A stretch of 64,000 bases of DNA. It comes from Massalongia carnosa. Taxonomy: Eukaryota. Positions 17,122 through 27,682 of the stretch are shown here, in pieces (position 1 is the stretch's first letter; every line of letters begins with the position of its first letter). Both the position numbers and the translations under genes were made by a program. The stretch covers positions 1,240,001-1,304,000 of the forward strand of contig OZ287074.1 in NCBI GenBank assembly GCA_965645245.1, in the 5' to 3' direction. The notes beneath the pieces are model-generated. The model saw nothing but the letters and a program-made list of their open reading frames with translations, ran no database searches and was not told the origin of the DNA.

Positions 17122-20100
17122 AGTTAGTATTCCTATCCTTCATTCAACATTTCTTAGTATGCATACGAGGAAGACACTCTCTGCTCTGAAAAGACTGGTA
17201 CTCGATCATCTTATTCTCCTACCGTGTTTTCAGATCATCCATCCTTCGCTCATTCTTCCTTCGAAGAAAAACTTATAAGGAAGGTTCTAACTCCATTCCA
17301 TGGCTGTTCTTTCATTGATTCTCCCATCCAGCGCTGCATAGTGATTGAGCTACCGGCGTCAGGTGTTCCCTCTGGCTTCTTTTGATTTGAGGGGCTTGTC
17401 ATGCTAGGCCAATTCCGATACAGCCTATGCTCGACGGTGGAGCCAAGAGGAACGTTTGACTATGGGGTTTTGTTAGTTTTCTACCTTAGTCTACCTCGGG
17501 GTTCTCTTATCGAAATGCTAACATCTTTACTAGTTTTTTTTTCATCTTATCATCAGTTTTCAGCCATGCTCCAGTGTCTTGCTTGCTCGAGTCACGCTGC
17601 TGGTCACACTGGCTAGACATTGGGAAGATGTTTTGCACCTGCGATGGCTCAGTATTGCTAAACACTCTTTGACCACGAACATGATTATGCAAATTCCAAC
17701 GTACTTGATCGATTTCTATGGCTATTGAGGGATAGTCTGCTTTTATGAACGAGCCCTGCCATCTGTCCATTACGTCTGCCCTCTCGTCCCAGGAATTGAT
17801 ATGGACTTTTTGTTTATCTGAGTAGACTAAGCTACGTTGTGAAAGGGGATTTATGTCCCTTTTGATAGACTAAAAATGCTGCATCCTTTTTTCCTAAGCA
17901 GGGTTATTTCCTATTTGGGTAATGCATGTTGCAACAGCCAACCGAGTGGCACATCCACTCAACAACAAGCACAGGGTTACATCGGCCTCATGCAACTTGA
18001 AATTCAAAAGGTCTACGTCCCTTTACCTTCTTTCAACGATCAGCTTTTCCATCCTTCATTGTCATCTTTTGTAAACTATCTTGCTTTGCTAGGTAAAATC
18101 CGAAAAGCCTTCTAGCAATTAAGTCTGTACAAAAATCTCATCAAGCCAAGGATGGCTTCTCTATACTTACAACCCACTGCGAATGAGCCGTCACAGCGTC
18201 ACCGCGCACGGCGAATATCTGACGAAGAATGGGAAGTTTGGCGTGAAAAGCTAGTATGGCTTTATAAAGAAAACAACTCATCACGCGAACAGATAATCGA
18301 CATTATGGCGAAAGATTGCAGCTTCGTGATAACGTAAGAACGGATGTTGCTTTGTCTTAAAAATCGAGGTTTTAAAACTTTCTGAATAACTAAAGATCTA
18401 TAGGGACAAACAACTCAGGCATCGATTTCAGAAGTGGGATGTTAAAAAGTATATCCCTGACAAAGACATGAATATCATGTTATCAGTTAAGAGGAAATGT
18501 CAGGTAGAAGGCAAAGACGTAAAATTTCAATACCAGAGTCATTATGTTGAACAGGAGAGAATAGAACGCGCGGACAAGAGACAGAAAAGACCACTTCTCC
18601 CTCCAATGGGCAAGTGCCATGTTTTTGAAAACGACTTGAATCTGAATCGACTTTACAGTCATTCCGTCGTATATCAAGATTGATACTTCGCCGCATCAGA
18701 ATACCGAAACGGCTAGAAATATTGCTTCAGTTAATCGTGCCGGCATTGGCGACAGCTTAGGGGTGTCAAGTTCCTGCATTCCACTTTGCGGTTCCTACGA
18801 TAGAAGCCAGGAGCTGGGCTTCACCTTCAACACCATGGTCAGTTTGAATTCTGGCGGGAACTTGAAGCTATCCGATGGTCATGACTTCACTGAGGTTCCC
18901 TTAACATCGGGCGACACATTCATGTCTGACGTCTCTGATATATCGTTTTCACAATCTCCCAAGATGAGCTCCAGGGGTAATAATATGCAGAACACCCGCA
19001 CAGCGCACGAATACAGTGATATTCCACTCATGCGGCGACGTGTGTTACTCGGCGAAAGTTCCGCACTGCGCTCGGGTAGAGAAAATAGCCCTTCTACTTC
19101 CGAGATTTCATGGTCTGCATGGCTGAAAACCCAAGTCTACGACCGTCAAGTGGAATATCCGATTCTGCCATTCAGCCTTCTCAGCCCATGAAGCCGAATC
19201 GCCTTGTTTCCAGCGGAGATGCCTTGTCAAACGAAGAGCTCACAAGCAACATCGTCCTTCGAGATGTGAACGGAGAATGCGGCCTGGTCGTGGTGGACGC
19301 TTGGCTGACTAATGCAAATCTTGGTCAAGTCATCTTTCAAGGCACAAATCCTGAAAAAATTATATTACCGCTGGAGCTATTGAGGTCACAATTCTTCGAA
19401 TGCTTAGACAGCCCCTCGTGTTCTTTCGTCCCGAATAGTTTATTGAAGTTGGTGAATAACGAGTGGCTACGTTACGGGTTTGAAGATTTGCTTTGCTGGG
19501 GTTATCGAGGCCTCTACTCGTACAAAAGCTATTCGGCAACGCCAGGTGGCAAGAAAGGCGCATGGATCAAGCACCAGCCCAATTTTCTTAACAGACGAAC
19601 CTCTCAAAAGTATCGAGTGGTCAATCCCCAATGAACCAACAAGCACAAAAGATAAAGTTGCATCTAGGCAAAATGTAAAGCACCCTAACTATTGGCATCG
19701 CTTGCCGTTGGGCGTGCTCAGTATATAGCTTATACAGCGTCAAAGGAGGTTATGAACGTTCTTGATGAGGAGCTTCTATGGAAGCTTAAAATATCCTTTA
19801 TGCCTAAAGCTAGTGGGCGAACGACTGGGGTCTCCGTTACTTTTCACAAGGTGTGGGATGCTTATCGAAAGCCTCCACATCCTCTCGCTGTCATTCTAGC
19901 ACCCCCCAAGCTAATCTATATTGGACTAGCTTCCGCACCGATGAGTCATCAGAACAAAGAATACTATTCGGTCATTCAAACAAAATAAATCACATAAATC
20001 ACTATTCTTCTAGCTTCGGAATTGATATTATAAGTATGACGCTCAATGAAGAAGAAATCCCGAGTGTTTCAGACAAATCTCCCATTCCAGCGAAGCAACA

Positions 20101-20982
20101 TAAAATAAATCGCAAAAGAAGTGTTCGAGATATTTTAATCTACCTTCCCCCTATTTTCTCAAAATATACCCCCATTCGGGTTGAAAACTGGCCTTTTGTT
20201 CCGCTCGTTGAAAACGATTCTCGAAATCCTTTGGGATTATTTCGGTTATTTATAACAAGGCAGCATTGTCGTATCATCGCAAATCATACCAATATCAAGG
20301 CATATAACTACATGGAAAAGGAGAAGGAGAACAATCATCGGATTTGGACTGACACTACTGACTCGGAAATAGAGGTTTTTTTGGGCATAATAATTCTTAT
20401 GAGAATCGATTATCTACCTGCTACAGAGGATTATTGGAATCAACGTCCTGACAAACCAGTCATCATGCCCATTCTGTCCGCAATGTCGCTTGGTCGATTT
20501 CAACAAATCAAACGATTTTTGAAAATCAATAATGGACGGACTGAGCCTATCGGACTTGGTCAAGGACCTGATTGGTGAAAGAAACTGGAACCGTTGGCTA
20601 CTGATTTCCGAAAGACTTCATTGAAACATTGCAGACCAGGAAGTATGATATCTATAGATGAACAGCTGGATGTTATTCAAGGACCATTCTCGACATACCT
20701 TGCAGATTACTACAAAAAGTGCCCATAAAGGATTCAAAATCTACAGTCTCTGTAAGGATAATTATCTATTATCATTTATATTTGCCTCGAAAAGTAGCAG
20801 AATAAGTGAATTGAAAACAGTCAGACAATTGGGACTTTTGCCAAAAGATAAACTAACTCCTAGTGCTTTGCTAGTGATTCAGTTATGTAAAGAACTTTCA
20901 TCCTCACTGAATTATCATCTTTTCTGTGATAATTTCTTTACTATTACGAAATTATTCAATGCACTTCGATCAATCGGAATAG

Positions 20983-21837
20983 TGTGGCGGGGTCACACGT
21001 GCTATATAGATGATCAGGTGACAGGACAGGCCTGTGCAGCCGAGAGTCGGGATAAAAGGGGCTTTTTGCTGTCGTTTTCTCCTGCACCTTTACATCTCCA
21101 CACATACATCTCTTCACATCTCTACATATACATCTCGACACACATCATCTTTGTCACATAGTCATAGTGACAACACATTCATTTGTGCAGTCGTCTAGTC
21201 GAGTTCTGTCACGGACAAGGTCCAGATAGGGAGATATGCAAGAGTTACTATTAGAAAGCTAGGTCTAGGGATAGTATACAAGACGTCCGACGAAGAGCTC
21301 CAAACACCTGAGAAACTACATAAGTTTTATAGCGATGGCTTCCAACTCCCCTATTCTTGACTTGCCCTCATCTCTGTTCCTGTTCTAATTTCCTAACCAT
21401 GATCGCTTTGACCTGTTCCGCCTTTCTCCATGCCGAAGCAACCTCTCTCTGCTGGGCAATCCCAGTCGTAGGCTTGAATAGTGGAGACGTTGAGATTGGA
21501 TTCGGGATATAGGAGTTTGGGAGTGCACTGAAGGCAGCGGAAGAACGTCTGAACACATGGGGTGAGGTTTCAGGATAGTTCGGAATAACGGGCCACGGTT
21601 CCATTCAACATGCAGGGTGGCAGGGTAGGTTTCACGGCAAGAGAGCCTGTTAAATACTAACCCGATCAGGAAACGTGGGAGGGTGCGAGGTAATTCCATG
21701 ACAAGTTCTTCACATGTTCATGCAGTCGTAGACTCATTCGATCATTTGTGGGTGTTCACTGCTCAGTTGGCCATCTATCTATCACGTCGCACCTCCTTCC
21801 ATTAGCACGCATCTTTGCCATTCATCACCCCGTCTCA
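20983..21837. mobile_element. Solo LTR A (~353 bp net) inserted in the transposase
   Basis: TG...CA ends with imperfect IR (TGTGGCGGGG / CCCCGTCTCA); ATAG duplicated at 20979-20982 and 21838-21841; removal restores 'SIGIAASGTAKKG'. Confidence 0.85.
21207..21703. mobile_element. Solo LTR B (497 bp) nested in solo LTR A
   Basis: TGTCACGGA...TCCATGACA ends; 5-bp TSD AGTTC at 21202-21206 and 21704-21708. Confidence 0.9.
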
Positions 21838-23795
21838 ATAGCTGCCAGTGGAACTGCTAAAAAGGGCTCGGGCTTTCCAGAAGAATTGTTGGCCATACGG
21901 GACGTCACTTCAAAAGGAAAAGACTGGGGTCTTCAGGCCCATATGGTGGTCGACGATAAGGTGCTTTGTATGGGCTGAGTGAAGAATAATGGTGTGCAGT
22001 ACATGACCATCGGTCATTCTCCTCAGGACTTGTACGAAATGCACCATATCAATCCGCACAAGAGATATGGAATTCCCGAGACCTCTCTTCAATCTATTGT
22101 ATCGTATTTCTCATCAACTCTGGCTCACTTCATTCTCTTGCTCAATCAAGAGGTTCAACGATCCTTAGGATTATCGATATCAGCCTCAATCAAAGAGTAT
22201 AATCTTCATATGGAGGGATCGAATGAAAACGCTCAGCAACGAGCGATTTACTCATACAATCGTCGAACGGATCGTCACTGGTGATCTTTGTTCATTTTTA
22301 TTTTAGATGCAGCCGGATTGAATGTCTATAAACTTTACTCGCTGAACTCTTTCGATTCCGCGAGAAGACTCGGGATAGTCCCACAGCGAAAATCATTCCA
22401 AATTAGGACTAGCTACAAGCCACCTCCCCATACTAGGGGACTGTCCCGAGTCTTTTCGGAAACCGTAGGTGCTGTGATCCACGAACCTCCACGTGTCCTG
22501 GTCATAACATGACACGAATTTTATCTTCTTATCTAGCTTGTCTAAACCAGACTGGCAGCCAGCTGATTCTATAATAATGTACGTAATTCGGTACATTTCA
22601 AGTCCTAATACCGAGACCGAGCGAAGACTGACCGTGGATAGCCGATGAAGGCCGGAGAAAAGGAGGGATGATGTTCTTTGACAGTCTTGAGGTTTTGGCA
22701 CCACCCCGCTTCTTGATATCAGGCGTATAGCTAGATGGAATCTTCTCCTCATTGCAGGTGAGAACCCCAGTGAAATCAGATGTCAGCAGGGCAGCGGCGG
22801 CAAGTGAGTTGCCCTATCAAAGATATCAAATGTATATTTTCAGTCGTCACGATCGAGCTCGCTAATCTCCCTTTTATTAGACTTGATGCATCGAAAGCAT
22901 TTCCTTTGCGTAGATCTAGAGTTCTTGTCTAGAGTGCCCTCGCCTGAGCTAAGCAAGAACCTGCTGATTAAATAAATGATGAACATGTTGGATCAACAGA
23001 TCCAAAATTCTTCTCTAGCCTGCGCTTATCTGAACTAAACAATAGCCTGCTGATCAAGCAAGTAATGAGCGTGGTTGGATTGATTTTTATTCAGCCTTCG
23101 ACCCCATCCCCCACTTCGCTTTTTACTGTCTCATCTTCCTTGAGTTTAGATAATTAAATAGACATTGTATTCACTTCTTTATTGTTACTTCTCATCAATA
23201 TCAAGACATTCAAGCATCATCTACAACTTCCTCTTATTCTTCACCTTTGAGAATTTAAACCAAGTTATCTCAGCACAATTCTTGTCAAAATTTTACGTCG
23301 AGGAAATCGTAACAAAAGGAGGGTCAGAGAGTGTTCATCTTCTACTGAGATATCTTTCCCTTCTTCAGATGTCACACCTTCGCCAGTATCTACTCCGAAG
23401 TCGTCTTCAGAGCACACGGATATACCAGATTCTTCCAAAACACACACGAATTTCAAAGAGTCCTCTTTTCCACTAGATGCCACATCATCGTCAGATTCGA
23501 CTCCGAAGTCGTCTTTGAATCACTCAGATATACCAAACTCTTTCAACACGAACCGGTTTCCCAAGAGCCAAAAACAAACGGATGAGAATCCATTCTCAAG
23601 ACTTCGCCTAATCTGCTTGCGAACGTAGATTGGGAAAGAATCTACTGACATTCACTCAATTCGACAAAAATTATGCAAGTACTCGGCATCCTGAAGACGA
23701 ATGAAGCGAAGAGTGTAGCTCAATTCTGGGTGATTGATTCTATTTTGAATGTCAACCTGGTATAGACCTCTTATCCCACATGGAATGTCAAGATC

Positions 23796-24281
23796 TTGTT
23801 GAGTGATATCGATCAAAAACTCCTTATCGATAAGCTACAGGCTCACAGTGTGCTGAGGAAATCGTGGTCGGGAGAGTCGATAGCTGATTATCTACAAGTC
23901 TCGTCCAATAAAGAGCGGGTGAACCCGCGAATAGAAATCTTGAAAGATGAGGATATTCGTGATAAGATGCGAAGGCTTTGCGAGTCCGATCGCTTTCCTT
24001 TTACCTACGACGGCATGGACGATGAGGACCCAAACCCGGGCCACGAAATAGACGATTTTATGGCCGGCCAGACTGTAGCGGTTGAATTTCAGGTGCACTT
24101 TCGGAATTTCCGAACACCAAAAAGACCTGAAGGTGCGGTAGATTACTCGTTCCGTCTTCAGAGCATTTACCTTGTTCGGGATCCGTTGCCAGAGATGTCT
24201 ACGCCGAGGAAAAGGAGGCGTGACCTTGACGATTCGATGTTGATTACATCACCGAGAACTAAATCATCCAGAGTTAGTTGA
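23796..24281 (+). CDS. Transposon cargo ORF of unknown function (C-terminal part of a longer disrupted gene)
   Basis: 161-codon ORF with globular composition; the same frame continues upstream past a TAG at 23763; lies between the TIRs. Confidence 0.55.
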   Translation: MLSDIDQKLLIDKLQAHSVLRKSWSGESIADYLQVSSNKERVNPRIEILKDEDIRDKMRRLCESDRFPFTYDGMDDEDPNPGHEIDDFMAGQTVAVEFQVHFRNFRTPKRPEGAVDYSFRLQSIYLVRDPLPEMSTPRKRRRDLDDSMLITSPRTKSSRVS

Positions 24282-24761
24282 AACCCTTTGGAATAGTGGG
24301 TGATAAAAAGGCAAGAGGATTGATAGGAGAGCTTGTCTTCATGGCCCCGATGAGAGTTTGCTTTTGACAAGATTTTGATCGGTCAATGTTGGCGTTTGAC
24401 GCTGAAAGTTCGCTGTTTTATATGTGTCTTTTTATTCTTATCAGGTATTCCTATAAGTACCCAGCAAGCGCCCGTGGGACTTACAATATGTGCCTGTATT
24501 GATGGTGGCCTGATCATCTAACAGATGATAGTCTAGTCTTCTAGCAACTGCAAACTTTCGTACGCTCCTTCCCTCTTTCCATCCATGGGTCCGCAGCGAT
24601 ACTAGCAGTTAGACTAGTCATTGAACTCGCAATCGAATTAGCCATAGGTCAGTTAGTTCGATCTTATCTAGGTGCAAAAGAATTAGCGAGCGGATCAGTC
24701 ATCTGCTTTTCTCAATCATCAAATTTCTGAAGCAAGCGCGCAAATATAATATCATCGTTTC

Positions 24762-24849
24762 CGCCCGTCCTGAGGATCGAACCCAGGCCACTGTGTGACA
24801 GTCTTAATGTCAGCATCCGCTGACACGCTAACCATTGGGCCACAGCTCC
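24762..24849 (-). ncRNA. tRNA-derived sequence (pseudo-tRNA / SINE-like head) with Pol III A and B boxes
   Basis: Minus strand GGAGCTG-TGGCCCAATGG (A box)...CTGGG-TTCGATC-CTCAG (T arm, B box); acceptor stem does not pair. Confidence 0.65.
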
Positions 24850-27682
24850 GTCTCTGGTTTCTGACCTTATTTGCCATCAAATATCAAATATGCTACAAGG
24901 CCGGAACAGCTTCAGGGGATTTTTGATTACGTAATTATATAGAGGGCTGAATCATGTGATCATCAACGAAGGAATAAACCTAATATGAACTTTTTGTGAA
25001 TAGGAATAACATTGATTGGTCAAAAGTTTAAGGTTTAGCGCTTTCTAAACAATGGTTTAGCTTGGGGGGTGCTAGAATGACAGCGAGAGAGATGTCAAAA
25101 GTTTTAATGTAGTTCCGATGGACTCGGAAATCATTCAGAGTATCTTACGTAACGATCTGCAGGGAGTACGCACACTTTTCGACCAAGGGAAAGCTTCTCC
25201 TCGAGATGTGGATCTAGACGGTTTCTCTTTATTGATGGTAACTCATCTGCGGTAGAGGAACAAATAATAAGAGGTGCTAATCGGTTTAGTATGCTAAGTT
25301 CACAGGATGTTCTGAGGTTTTTCGTCTGCTTCTATACGGTGGAGCAGATACACAAAATTGCAGGCTGTAAGCATTTCGTTCGTCATGTCAACTGATTATT
25401 GCAACCTTACTGATATCATGAGTAGTTATGGAAATAGTATTGACGTGATCTGGAGTATTTGGGAGTCTTTCTTCGGGACTCACCATGGCGTGATATATAA
25501 TGTGCAGGAAGATTATACCAATGACTTCGACCAATGTGTTAGCATGTCAGCTATGGTTTTGAATTATGGTTGCGAAATTGAGGATAGTACCCCCTGGAAT
25601 GTCTCTATTGCTAGTCCATTGTTTTCCTTACCATGTTACATGCTATCAAAAGCGCCTTGCTCGACGACAGGAAAAGTACTCGAGTATTTAATCAATGCAG
25701 GGTATGATCTGGAACAGCAAAATCACAAAGGGCAAACGCCATTACTGTACGCGGCGAGGCAACAAAAATCTCATATCCTTAAGTGTCTAAGAACATTCAT
25801 CAGAAAAGGCGCTAACTGCCATGCAGCTGATCCAGCAGGCCGTGGTGCTTTGCACTGTGCTTTGAAGCCTAAAAAGTTTACTCGTGCGCTCATGCCCCAG
25901 TTTAGTCATGACGAAAAACTTTTCTTACTCTCTTGGTTATTGAAGATGGAGAATGACACACACGTAGAAGATTACAATGACGACGGTTTCGACTCAGAAC
26001 CGCTAATATGCGAGAAATCAGAAGAAAGTTGGCACATTGAGCACACATGGCTAAGGACCTATTATCCTGAATTTTTCCGGGACTTCTGATAACAATGATG
26101 GTGAAGACGATGCCATTACAGACCAAACTATTGTCGAGGATGCTGATGTTGGAGAGGCGCGCTCTATTAATGAGCTTATAAGTGAATATAATTATGTTAC
26201 CGATTTCCAGGGCCGTAAGCGTATTATTCGGCATCCTCTAATTGCGCTAAAGAAGCGATTAAGATTTCGACTGCTTCTTTTGCTGCAAGCAGGATGCAAT
26301 CCGAATGTTCTTGACAACAAAAACTCCTTCCCAAGTGACTATGCTACACGGCATGGTCTTTGACCGCAATGGAGTTGGGCCCTTACGAATACTGGATACA
26401 TCTATGATACAATCAGCGGTCGGTGGGTAAAAAAGCCTCAGTGGGGGCAAAGCACCGATGGTTGAGGATTACTAGCCTTTAGATATATGGTGGAAATGTG
26501 GTTCGATCCTCTCGTGATATTTGGTTTAGCGATTCAGCATTGGCTATGTTGGGTTTCAATTTTACCATGATGGCGTATGATGTAGCCAGAGAAAAGTTCC
26601 TCGGAACCGATTACCTCGGGATCGTTCATCCAGAAGTATTTCGTTAATCCAGAAAACAATGTTTCTAACGTTCTACAAATACCCTCGATTTTATCATCCA
26701 TCATAAACTCTCACGACGGATCCAACGATGTAATTTCCACCCAAGAGCCAAGGAAGGACTAAGGAAAGGTCAAGTACTTATTCTTGCTACATACTACAAG
26801 GAGGAGGAGGCGGTTACCAAATGATTGTTGATGTAGTTAAGGAGAGCCAAACCTGGGCGATATAGAGTCAGGACCGGCATCATCATCATAGTTGCGATAT
26901 GTCAAGAAAAGAAAGGGCGATGGATGGATAGGTTTCCTTCCTATATGAAACAGCGTCAAATCAAAAACCCCCTTCAGCTTTTAGATGAATGTCCTTTTCA
27001 CGTCGATTTTTATTTGCCATCTATATAACTCACCCTCTATACTCCGTTTTACATTCCACGAATCACCTAACGTCACGTCCCGTCCCATCATGATGCATCA
27101 GTCCTCGAGTTGATCGGAAATGAAATGGAACTTGATAAGTTCCTTCCCCCCTTTTCTGGTTGGTTATTTGTTAGGTAGCTTGAATATTTCATTCGTTACC
27201 GTTTTCAGGTCCCATCTCCCGTCCCCAGGCCCAGGTCCTTTCTTTCGGGATGAAAAGGGGGAGGGAGGGGGAGAAATTCATTCCCCCATCATCCACCCAT
27301 ACCTACCTACCTACCTACGCCCTTCCCACTCTTCACCTCAAATCAACTCACTTCATCCCCCCCGGAGTCCGCGCTGTTCCCGTTCCCCTGCTGATCCTGC
27401 TCCCGGTCCTCTCGCCTCTTCGCTGGAGCAAATAAAAAGAAACTGGTCTGCACATAGGGATAGTGATAGGGATATCAATAGAGATAAGGTAGGTAAGCAG
27501 GTAGGTAAGACTATGAAACATATAGTAGACAGCCGCCTTTTCGCTCTCAAAGTCGTTCGTAATTTACATATCTCAACCATGCATACGCCTTCGCTAGACA
27601 AACCCCGACTCATCCCTTCTTCACCAGCCAACCAATCCCCCCGCCCCAACCCCCCCCCCTCTAACCCTCCCATCCCACTACC

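Follow-up and report, generated by a model that had tools for sequence, protein, structure and literature searches.

A pile-up of mobile DNA in a Clr5-ankyrin pseudogene of Massalongia carnosa, with an outer piggyBac-type transposon that probably targets TATA

Host gene and nested elements

The window, by which we mean the whole stretch of 64,000 nucleotides that was analyzed (contig OZ287074.1, positions 1,240,001 to 1,304,000 of the forward strand), holds a Clr5-ankyrin pseudogene that is interrupted by mobile elements lying one within another. An earlier note, made from the sequence alone, had described these nested layers in an island among housekeeping genes. Both descriptions hold, as the outer transposon and the two inner layers (A and B) all have further copies in the 52-Mb genome, and the neighbors include Nop53, a MYST acetyltransferase and RNase H2 subunit C. 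The features are as follows (window positions; no strand was assigned where none is named).

18152..19880, plus strand: host Clr5-ankyrin pseudogene, 5' half, Clr5 in exons 1-2 (PF14420; alignment to homolog P0195)
19879..19880: left copy of the AT target duplication; the target is CATG here, TATA nearly everywhere else (flank comparison)
19881..25091, plus strand: piggyBac-superfamily DNA transposon, an older copy, 5,211 bp after later events (family termini)
19881..19919, plus strand: left terminal inverted repeat, lacking a C of the family CCCT end (family termini)
20036..22360, plus strand: broken transposase frame, split by layer A, with stop codons, a 1-base deletion near 20670 and the 3' end lost (PF13843)
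20983..21837, plus strand: layer A, probably a solo LTR, 353 bp long once B is removed; ATAG at 20979-20982 and 21838-21841 (duplication, copies)
21207..21703, minus strand: layer B, solo LTR of a 6.7-kb Ty3/Gypsy element, antisense to A; AGTTC at 21202-21206 and 21704-21708 (full-length copies)
21978..22325: dense CpC-to-TpC tract, both strands, 18 sites
22361..22458: 98-bp remnant of a 3.4-kb Mutator-like element, ends joined by internal deletion (family ends)
22458..24981: foreign segment, 2.5 kb; one other near-complete copy, on contig C2, with 5.4% substitutions
23338..23752: second dense CpC-to-TpC tract, within the foreign segment
24982..25091, plus strand: transposon right end; right inverted repeat at 25052-25091, AGGG changed to AGAG (family comparison)
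25092..25093: right copy of the AT target duplication (flank comparison)
25094..26465, plus strand: host pseudogene, 3' half, ankyrin repeats (P0195 resumes at residue 567 at 25094)

A domain search of the window located the Clr5 (PF14420), ankyrin and DDE_Tnp_1_7 domains where they had been placed earlier. The homolog P0195 (1030 aa, Clr5 and ankyrin) aligned through residue 566, at 19880, and is contiguous over the joint 19880/25094. The host pseudogene is single-copy in the genome, with no close paralog. Its 3' half carries a frame change near 26055-26089 and a premature TGA at 26361, and because of these other lesions the transposon insertion need not have killed the gene. An empty allele of the host locus was not seen among contigs, which can show presence but not absence (15 of 20 joints in four runs, none joining the host halves). 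An assembly artefact was rejected, as two runs of organism A, which may be the source sample, yielded unique contigs into both element ends with no differences. In a diverged strain from a separate study, a contig extends from host sequence into the left end of the transposon.

Layer B is the youngest of the nest by position. B is a 497-bp segment with TG..CA ends and AGTTC flanks, and its excision restores LTR A, as the earlier note had it; intact A copies are uninterrupted at this site, and a joint skipping 502 bp was found in four runs. Its reading as a solo LTR is borne out by full-length elements with the same LTR in the genome. Of 19 other LTR matches, eight are solo LTRs bearing 5-bp duplications; three LTR pairs have outer 5-bp repeats in common. 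A full-length element (L131) encodes a 1,464-aa pol with reverse transcriptase, RNase H and integrase in order; a chromodomain match (PF00385) was weak (E 0.002, 18.5 bits, below the 25.1 cut-off). The element is like chromovirus-type Ty3/Gypsy elements (Tf1/sushi) in these three enzymes, a Tf2-like SH3 and the 5-bp duplication, with no notable difference. Over 9 nt, its primer site is complementary to LTR sequence some 40 nt past a TATA box, and presumably resembles that of self-priming elements such as Tf1.

Layer A behaves likewise on excision: its removal with one ATAG restores the transposase frame (SIGI/AASG), as had been claimed, and the ends are TG..CA with ATAG on both sides. Intact transposon copies are uninterrupted at this site, and one joint skips 859 bp. 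Such ends with a short target duplication are those of a solo LTR, and 4-bp duplications were present at four of the seven other complete A copies. Its earlier designation as a solo LTR is likely to hold. No A copy joined to an internal region was found, all seven other complete copies standing alone; it is a 335-bp repeat, only 72-77% similar to A, that pairs as LTRs around 1.3-2.3 kb of shared internal sequence. Among these pairs, a TGG-type primer site was seen at all four loci fetched and 4-bp duplications at three of them, and a Pfam search with the ORF of the element gave no match. A Gypsy element within an A-like copy on contig C13 was rejected as the parent of A, as it carries its own 181-bp LTRs. 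The solitary state of every other complete copy, together with the short, imperfect inverted-repeat ends TG..CA and the 4-bp duplications, would also suit a small non-autonomous element (Ginger-like or MITE-like) that moves as it is. The LTR pairs formed by the 335-bp repeat argue against this reading, which we hold to be unlikely; A is probably a solo LTR.

The claim that four layers account for every junction did not hold. A 2.6-kb block at 22361-24981, made up of the Mutator remnant and the two-copy segment, is foreign DNA that replaces about 390 bp of the transposase; the remnant, the segment and the deletion had all been overlooked. The Mutator-like family resembles MULEs in its PF10551 and FAR1/AFT domains and in a 9-bp duplication (10 of 16 copies fetched), whereas the window copy is reduced to 98 bp and the 9-bp duplication sought there is absent. 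A Helitron origin of 22458-24981 was rejected: the C2 copy does have a Rep-helicase gene 0.5 kb upstream, but the segment starts there about 290 bp beyond the end of the Helitron family, and a search for Helitron 3' features found no strong hairpin. Nor was there support for a tRNA gene or a SINE on the minus strand near 24761-24850: the stretch is two-copy, ARAGORN found no tRNA gene in the window and Rfam gave only two sub-threshold snoRNA matches nearby. The ORFs of the segment had no Pfam match, and their look-alikes in the Atlas were unnamed, with recognition scores below threshold.

The transposon and the foreign block share a further mark. Changes private to the window fell on 18 of 125 CpC sites versus 2 of 157 CpA sites, and the bias remains when limited to sites where older copies agree. 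Only four of 247 segments were biased toward CpC at p<0.001, all four from the window locus, and a genome-wide or subfamily trait was accordingly rejected. A three-way comparison that included a copy of 75% similarity gave no CpC changes over the stretch that it covered, which lies outside the dense tracts. Like RIP, the tracts are clustered C-to-T changes on both strands of repeated DNA; their context is CpC, whereas RIP in most fungi favors CpA (PMC2621366). Classical RIP was rejected for the tracts as their changes are not CpA-dominant. Other genome copies do show a CpA bias (L069, 21/264).

Target site of the outer transposon

Copies of the transposon family are about 2.16 kb long with CCCT..AGGG termini. 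The 38-bp inverted repeat of the window copy is 95% complementary, and a 20-nt motif from it occurs 99 times in the genome, versus none for a control. All 41 paired copies share the flanks (T/C)AT-CCCT…AGGG-ATA, with inverted-repeat ends that start with C in the register of an AT duplication. AT stands on both sides in 41 of 41, TAT on the left in 40 and ATA on the right in 41, the next base being variable; a 4-bp duplication is compatible with one of the 41. TTAA, taken to define piggyBac (PMC5381638) and the classical elements of this kind (PBLE), was the target of none. Of 93 termini in this family, 88 read TATCCCT, as do 25 of the 27 in a second family of the genome, whose transposase is about 46% identical. 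The same ends were found in 7 of 50 metagenome loci (36-45% identical), and TTAA ends in two distant loci.

In an empty-site test of 54 paired copies, the compared sequences offered a homologous but unoccupied site for 12, and 10 of these 12 comparisons gave a net gain of 2 bp at a TATA target. The two exceptions were L196, which showed no gain against L107, and L049, which is rearranged. The extra AT at the L107 site could be a footprint or a slip. The unusual target site was absent from the earlier note.

We conclude that, in all likelihood, the outer element inserts at TATA and duplicates AT, unlike the usual TTAA; this judgement goes with our explanation of the locus as a whole. An element ending T-CCCT and AGGG-A that inserts bluntly between the A and T of TATA would leave filled and empty sequences identical to those of the AT duplication, and the two are inseparable by sequence, as AT lies at the center of each target observed. 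That such an element is at work is nevertheless quite unlikely: TTAA-type relatives begin CC immediately after their duplication, piggyBac ends begin with a conserved C (PMC5381638), and piggyBac chemistry makes staggered cuts (PMC7351741). Ends TCCCT and AGGGA with duplication of TA, as stated for the truffle element Ti_tr1 (PMC3864998), fit the TA that 40 of the 41 copies have in this register. Yet this reading predicts empty sites 2 bp shorter than observed in 10 of the 12 comparisons, breaks the host frame in the window and fails where the two flanks of a copy are CAT and ATA, and we regard it as very improbable.

We give equally little credence to the ends of the earlier note, 19884 and 25087 with no duplication. 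Removal of that interval, which had given the host junction RKPPHP/RDVKSFNVVP, keeps the frame and matches the length of the homologs with no gap, whereas the corrected junction PPH/VKSF requires a 3-residue gap against both. However, PPHP/RDVK would require chance mimicry of the terminus by the host on both sides (ATCCT for ATCCCT, AGAGAT for AGGGAT). It also scores lower against both homologs (122 for the corrected junction versus 111, and 111 versus 108), and the AGGG-to-AGAG change agrees with the local GG-to-GA bias. The family termini put the transposon at 19881-25091 with the AT duplication; the former cut leaves nine bases of element and duplication, and keeps the frame by coincidence.

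Transposase and clade

Intact copies encode a 610-aa transposase with PF13843 at 8.9e-53, and the family is young, with a median divergence of 0.19%. A structure search gave piggyBac (6X67) and piggyBat (9C0F) as the only matches. The catalytic triad D208/D298/D443 aligns with the motifs of the T. ni enzyme, and the last 90 residues contain a Cys/His cluster, a Cys-rich C-terminus by sequence alone. The family thus shares with T. ni piggyBac and piggyBat the DDE_Tnp_1_7 domain, the DDD triad, the Cys-rich C-terminus, a single ORF of about 600 aa, CCCT..AGGG ends and a length of about 2.2 kb. It differs from them in its target (TATA with AT duplicated, versus TTAA) and in a loop near the target, where Q, N or M occupies the position of Y283, which in T. 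ni stacks on the TTAA target (PMC7351741). This position is aromatic in none of 30 aligned clade rows, versus Y or F in 13 of 19 outside the clade; L235, a TTAA-type relative, likewise has no aromatic residue there. With readable ends in 14 of 54 tree rows, all 12 TATCCC-type rows fell in one 35-member clade (support 1.0), separate from the TTAA rows. To the distant group that holds TTAA-type elements the family is only 23-28% identical.

A literature search, with some supplements and one review outside its coverage, found no description of a piggyBac element that duplicates AT within TATA. Ti_tr1 of Tuber indicum comes nearest: a 2.35-kb ascomycete DDE_Tnp_1_7 element with no TTAA, it is described from one copy, with a 2-bp duplication read as TA, and was left unclassified (PMC3864998). 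It shares the domain and long inverted repeats with the family, and differs in that its description gives neither a target consensus nor a clade (PMC3864998). By comparison of descriptions, not of end sequences, Ti_tr1 may be the same kind of element read one base off. A piggyBac 'Group 4' of fungi, plants and algae is a separate branch that includes fungal piggyBacs (PMC13461360). Its account describes mining with a TTAACC filter that allowed two mismatches, and no other target (PMC13461360); NTATCC ends would presumably pass that filter. We propose, tentatively, that the whole fungal clade may have moved from a 4-nt TTAA to a 2-nt AT overhang within TATA, a change that would be undescribed and recently active here.

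Order of events and implications

The succession given in the earlier note, i.e. host gene, DNA transposon, A and B, follows from the nesting and fits the divergences to the nearest copy (3.4% for the transposon, 3.7% for A, 1.2% for B). It was not complete, as a fifth and probably a sixth event had been missed and the outer breakpoints were wrong. The 2.16-kb transposon entered the Clr5-ankyrin gene with duplication of AT. The 3' end of its transposase was then deleted and replaced by the Mutator remnant and 2.5 kb of other DNA, for which a Mutator-driven adjacent deletion would be the likely cause. A CpC-to-TpC burst, apparent from the pattern, would have followed across the transposon and the foreign block. 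Finally, the LTR element A inserted into the transposase and the Gypsy element B into the LTR of A, each presumably cut to one LTR by LTR-LTR recombination. The replacement and the burst are placed before the two LTR insertions because the CpC pattern is absent from A and B, which is the sole basis for this placement. We consider it probable that mobile DNA has piled up here in an ordinary way, in a gene that is dispensable, and that the outer element belongs to a fungal piggyBac clade that changed its target.

At the target, a DDD piggyBac transposase would recognize TATA (Y-AT-R) and join the ends at T^ATA on both strands, leaving a 2-nt stagger that is repaired to the AT duplication, as opposed to the 4-nt stagger at TTAA in classical piggyBac.

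Nests of insertions are widespread and contribute little in themselves; the target site weighs more. The CpC burst, seen at one locus, hints at a process of unusual context, either RIP-like or due to a deaminase. For annotation, elements of this kind would be mis-trimmed or taken for TA-type. TTAA dependence is cited as a limit of piggyBac tools (PMC13461360), and to such tools the family may be relevant for its near-identical copies with intact 610-aa frames. Structures link seamless excision to a TTAA hairpin of 4 nt, a mirror of the target (PMC7351741). With no more than AT duplicated, a clade must have either a tighter hairpin or another way of cutting, and its excisions may leave footprints. 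If the clade did change its target in this way, it would be a naturally retargeted piggyBac and would put to the test the model in which hairpin and target share one 4-nt shape.

Ends and target site of the transposon

The nested locus lies in a 52-Mb fungal assembly of 25 contigs, the window being bases 1,240,001-1,304,000 of contig C8, and is organized as follows.

18152..26465: whole locus, a host Clr5-ankyrin pseudogene with its insertions
19881-25091: piggyBac-type transposon
20983-21837: layer A, probable solo LTR
21207-21703, minus strand: layer B, Ty3/Gypsy solo LTR
22361-22458: Mutator-like remnant
22458-24981: foreign segment

The genes around this island (Nop53, Kei1, a MYST acetyltransferase and RNase H2 subunit C) are conserved, and to that extent its earlier description as set among essential housekeeping genes holds. 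No repeat was common to the window outside 18000-26500 and the loci compared. The host gene is single-copy, with the layout of P0195, an intact Clr5-ankyrin homolog; the full-length homolog used was from Mycoblastus. The lesions of the window's host gene are a premature TGA at 26361 and a frame change near 26055-26089, and there are stops at 19632-19688 in the aligned frame, for which an intron or a frameshift may account. Across both host halves, contigs from two runs match the assembly without a single difference. A lichen metagenome run contains a close strain; together with the Mycoblastus origin of the homolog, this makes a lichen-associated ascomycete the likely source. In a strain of another study (14 substitutions in 2 kb) the host sequence continues into the left end of the transposon, and the insertion is therefore common to both.

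The terminal motif of the transposon occurs 99 times in the genome (control, 0), and most paired termini are spaced by ~2.16 kb. Of the 20 regions retrieved first, 10 contain an open frame of at least 610 aa. The transposase domain is DDE_Tnp_1_7, with a DDD triad and a predicted Cys-rich tail, and its matches among solved structures are piggyBac and piggyBat only. Median divergence among fourteen copies is 0.19%, hence a recent expansion of the family. The window copy is older, being 3.4% from its nearest relative and having stop codons in frame; its right end resembles two older copies. At L031 (G000:C1:2840627-2844981) and L270 (G000:C2:3241574-3245945), pairs of copies in opposite orientation stand ~25-40 bp apart, which suggests local hopping.

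All 41 paired rows, including two with common flanks via a duplicated segment, show an element running CCCT…AGGG bordered by AT on either side; the left flank is TAT in 40 and the right flank ATA in 41, and the base beyond is variable. The register was fixed by homologous unoccupied sites, found for 12 of the 54 paired copies in two families. In ten of these 12 comparisons, TATA is converted to TAT[element]ATA; of the remaining two, one is without gain and the other rearranged. The comparisons support duplication of AT on insertion. A blunt insertion between the A and the T of the target, with no duplication, is compatible with the same comparisons and we regard it as improbable. Duplication of TA with longer ends is ruled out by the empty sites (TATA in 10/12). 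Relative to the 2-bp rule, the unoccupied site in the comparison of L107 with L196 carries an extra AT, possibly left by excision as a footprint or produced by a TA slip.

With AT as the duplication, the window element spans 19881-25091, with AT at 19879-80 and 25092-93 and CATG as its target, and the ends proposed in the earlier note (19884 and 25087) are displaced. In the P0195 alignment, residue 566 falls at 19880 and residue 567 at 25094. The earlier junction leaves no gap against the homologs and the corrected one costs a gap of three residues, yet the earlier junction scores lower in the alignments, by 11 and 3 points.

Insertions within the transposon

Layer B is flanked by AGTTC at both ends, as previously noted. 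From 272 candidates, 40 were scored; among 19 other B-type loci examined, eight are solo LTRs with 5-bp duplications, and three pairs of LTRs ~6.2 kb apart have outer 5-bp repeats in common. The full-length retrotransposon sought for this LTR was found, as in L131 (G000:C1:1687526-1694190), whose 1,464-aa pol has RT, RNase H, integrase and a Tf2-like SH3; a chromodomain match was below threshold. The solo LTR L098 has flanks identical to those of the full element L099/L100, and thus demonstrates directly the reduction from element to solo LTR. In self-priming Tf1-type elements the primer site pairs with LTR sequence. The L131 primer site resembles these in its 9-nt complementarity to the LTR, ~40 nt downstream of the TATA box, and suggests self-priming.

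Layer A has ATAG at both ends, as claimed, and intact A copies are uninterrupted across the B site, confirming that B is nested in A. The seven other complete copies of A (328-412 bp) have 4-bp duplications in four cases and no internal flank in common. At 4/4 loci, a repeat 72-77% similar to A occurs as paired LTRs (97-99.7% identical) that enclose a common interior with a TGG-type primer site, with 4-bp duplications at three; for this reason layer A is probably a solo LTR, as proposed, its own parent element not having been found. The loci with this repeat, L182-L185 (e.g. G000:C20:355156-358115), hold an LTR element with 335-bp A-like LTRs and a 4-bp duplication; LTR identity of up to 99.7% indicates recent mobility. 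Their ORF (621-672 aa, Ser/Thr-rich) gave no Pfam match and no reverse transcriptase.

The nested-insertion account was only partly confirmed, as its four layers overlooked a block at 22361-24981 inside the transposon. The window matches family copies up to 22360 and again from ~24982, with ~390 bp of element missing. A 98-bp hairpin in the block is composed of the two termini of a young Mutator-like family of 3.4 kb (113 terminal matches; PF10551; copies at L166-L181). A 9-bp duplication accompanies 10/16 family copies; its absence from the other six and from the window remnant suggests that adjacent deletions are common in the family. The 2.5-kb foreign segment has one near-complete copy, on contig C2 (5.4% diverged), and a 358-bp match on C12 (75%). 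The possibility that the segment came from a Helitron did not survive testing. A Rep-helicase Helitron with dozens of copies in its family is present at L132 (G000:C2:3510000-3519999), with a 1.5-kb minisatellite (23-bp) upstream, between 289-bp direct repeats. Within the foreign segment, 24761-24850 (minus strand) is tRNA-like, with A-box/B-box-like motifs and a T-arm-like stem; it has two copies only and no ARAGORN or Rfam call.

The nesting itself is ordinary. Further transposon copies at L040, L045, L049 and L050 contain nested insertions (0.7-6 kb, one full Gypsy element among them), which makes such nesting a routine feature of the genome.

A CpC-to-TpC burst

With a young copy as reference, C-to-T changes in the window element fall at 25/158 CpC and 7/502 other sites. 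The foreign segment, compared with its C2 copy, has them at 31/217 CpC and 18/768 other sites (reverse comparison, 6/191). At sites aligned and identical in four or more of five copies, changes private to the window affect 18/125 CpC versus 4/427 other sites (p = 3e-9). They lie on both strands, with two dense tracts (21978-22325 and 23338-23752); in other copies there is either no bias or the CpA bias that is usually seen. Among 247 repeat segments of the fetched loci, a sample of the genome, this locus alone reached p<0.001 for CpC. The pattern is absent from A (0/26, against the nearest copy) and B (1/69), which weakly places both layers after the burst.

Breadth of the TATA-type clade

TATCCCT is also found at 25/27 termini of a second family (~46% identical) in the genome. 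In 50 metagenome loci, TATCCC..GGGATA ends were found in seven (36-45% identical) and TTAA ends in two (23%), the remainder having no readable end pair or being left unclassed. We infer the duplication size of the metagenome elements from matching flanks, since the empty sites come from this genome's families. A FastTree phylogeny of 54 sequences (midpoint root; loci with <300 aligned residues excluded) places all 12 TATCCC rows inside a single 35-member clade (support 1.0), separate from the TTAA rows. At the position of T. ni Y283, clade members have N, Q or M; outside the clade, 13/19 have Y or F, and one TTAA element has R.

Repbase has subgroups piggyBacA and piggyBacX with other duplications, descriptions of which were not found in the literature searched. 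A Repbase table gives piggyBac without subgroups (PMC4455052). TTAA is described as general to the superfamily, rare other single-copy flanks being attributed to mutation (PMC5381638), and structures connect targeting of TTAA with a hairpin of 4 nt (PMC7351741). Pezizomycotina are known to have piggyBacs (PMC5751038), a fungal-plant-algal group was mined using a tolerant TTAA filter (PMC13461360), and the truffle Ti_tr1 is a fungal piggyBac-like, non-TTAA element, read as TA (PMC3864998). In the literature covered, AT within TATA is nowhere stated, most subscription papers and Repbase Reports lying outside the search. The non-TTAA piggyBac clade is well supported by sequence; it has partial precedent in print and is open to direct test.
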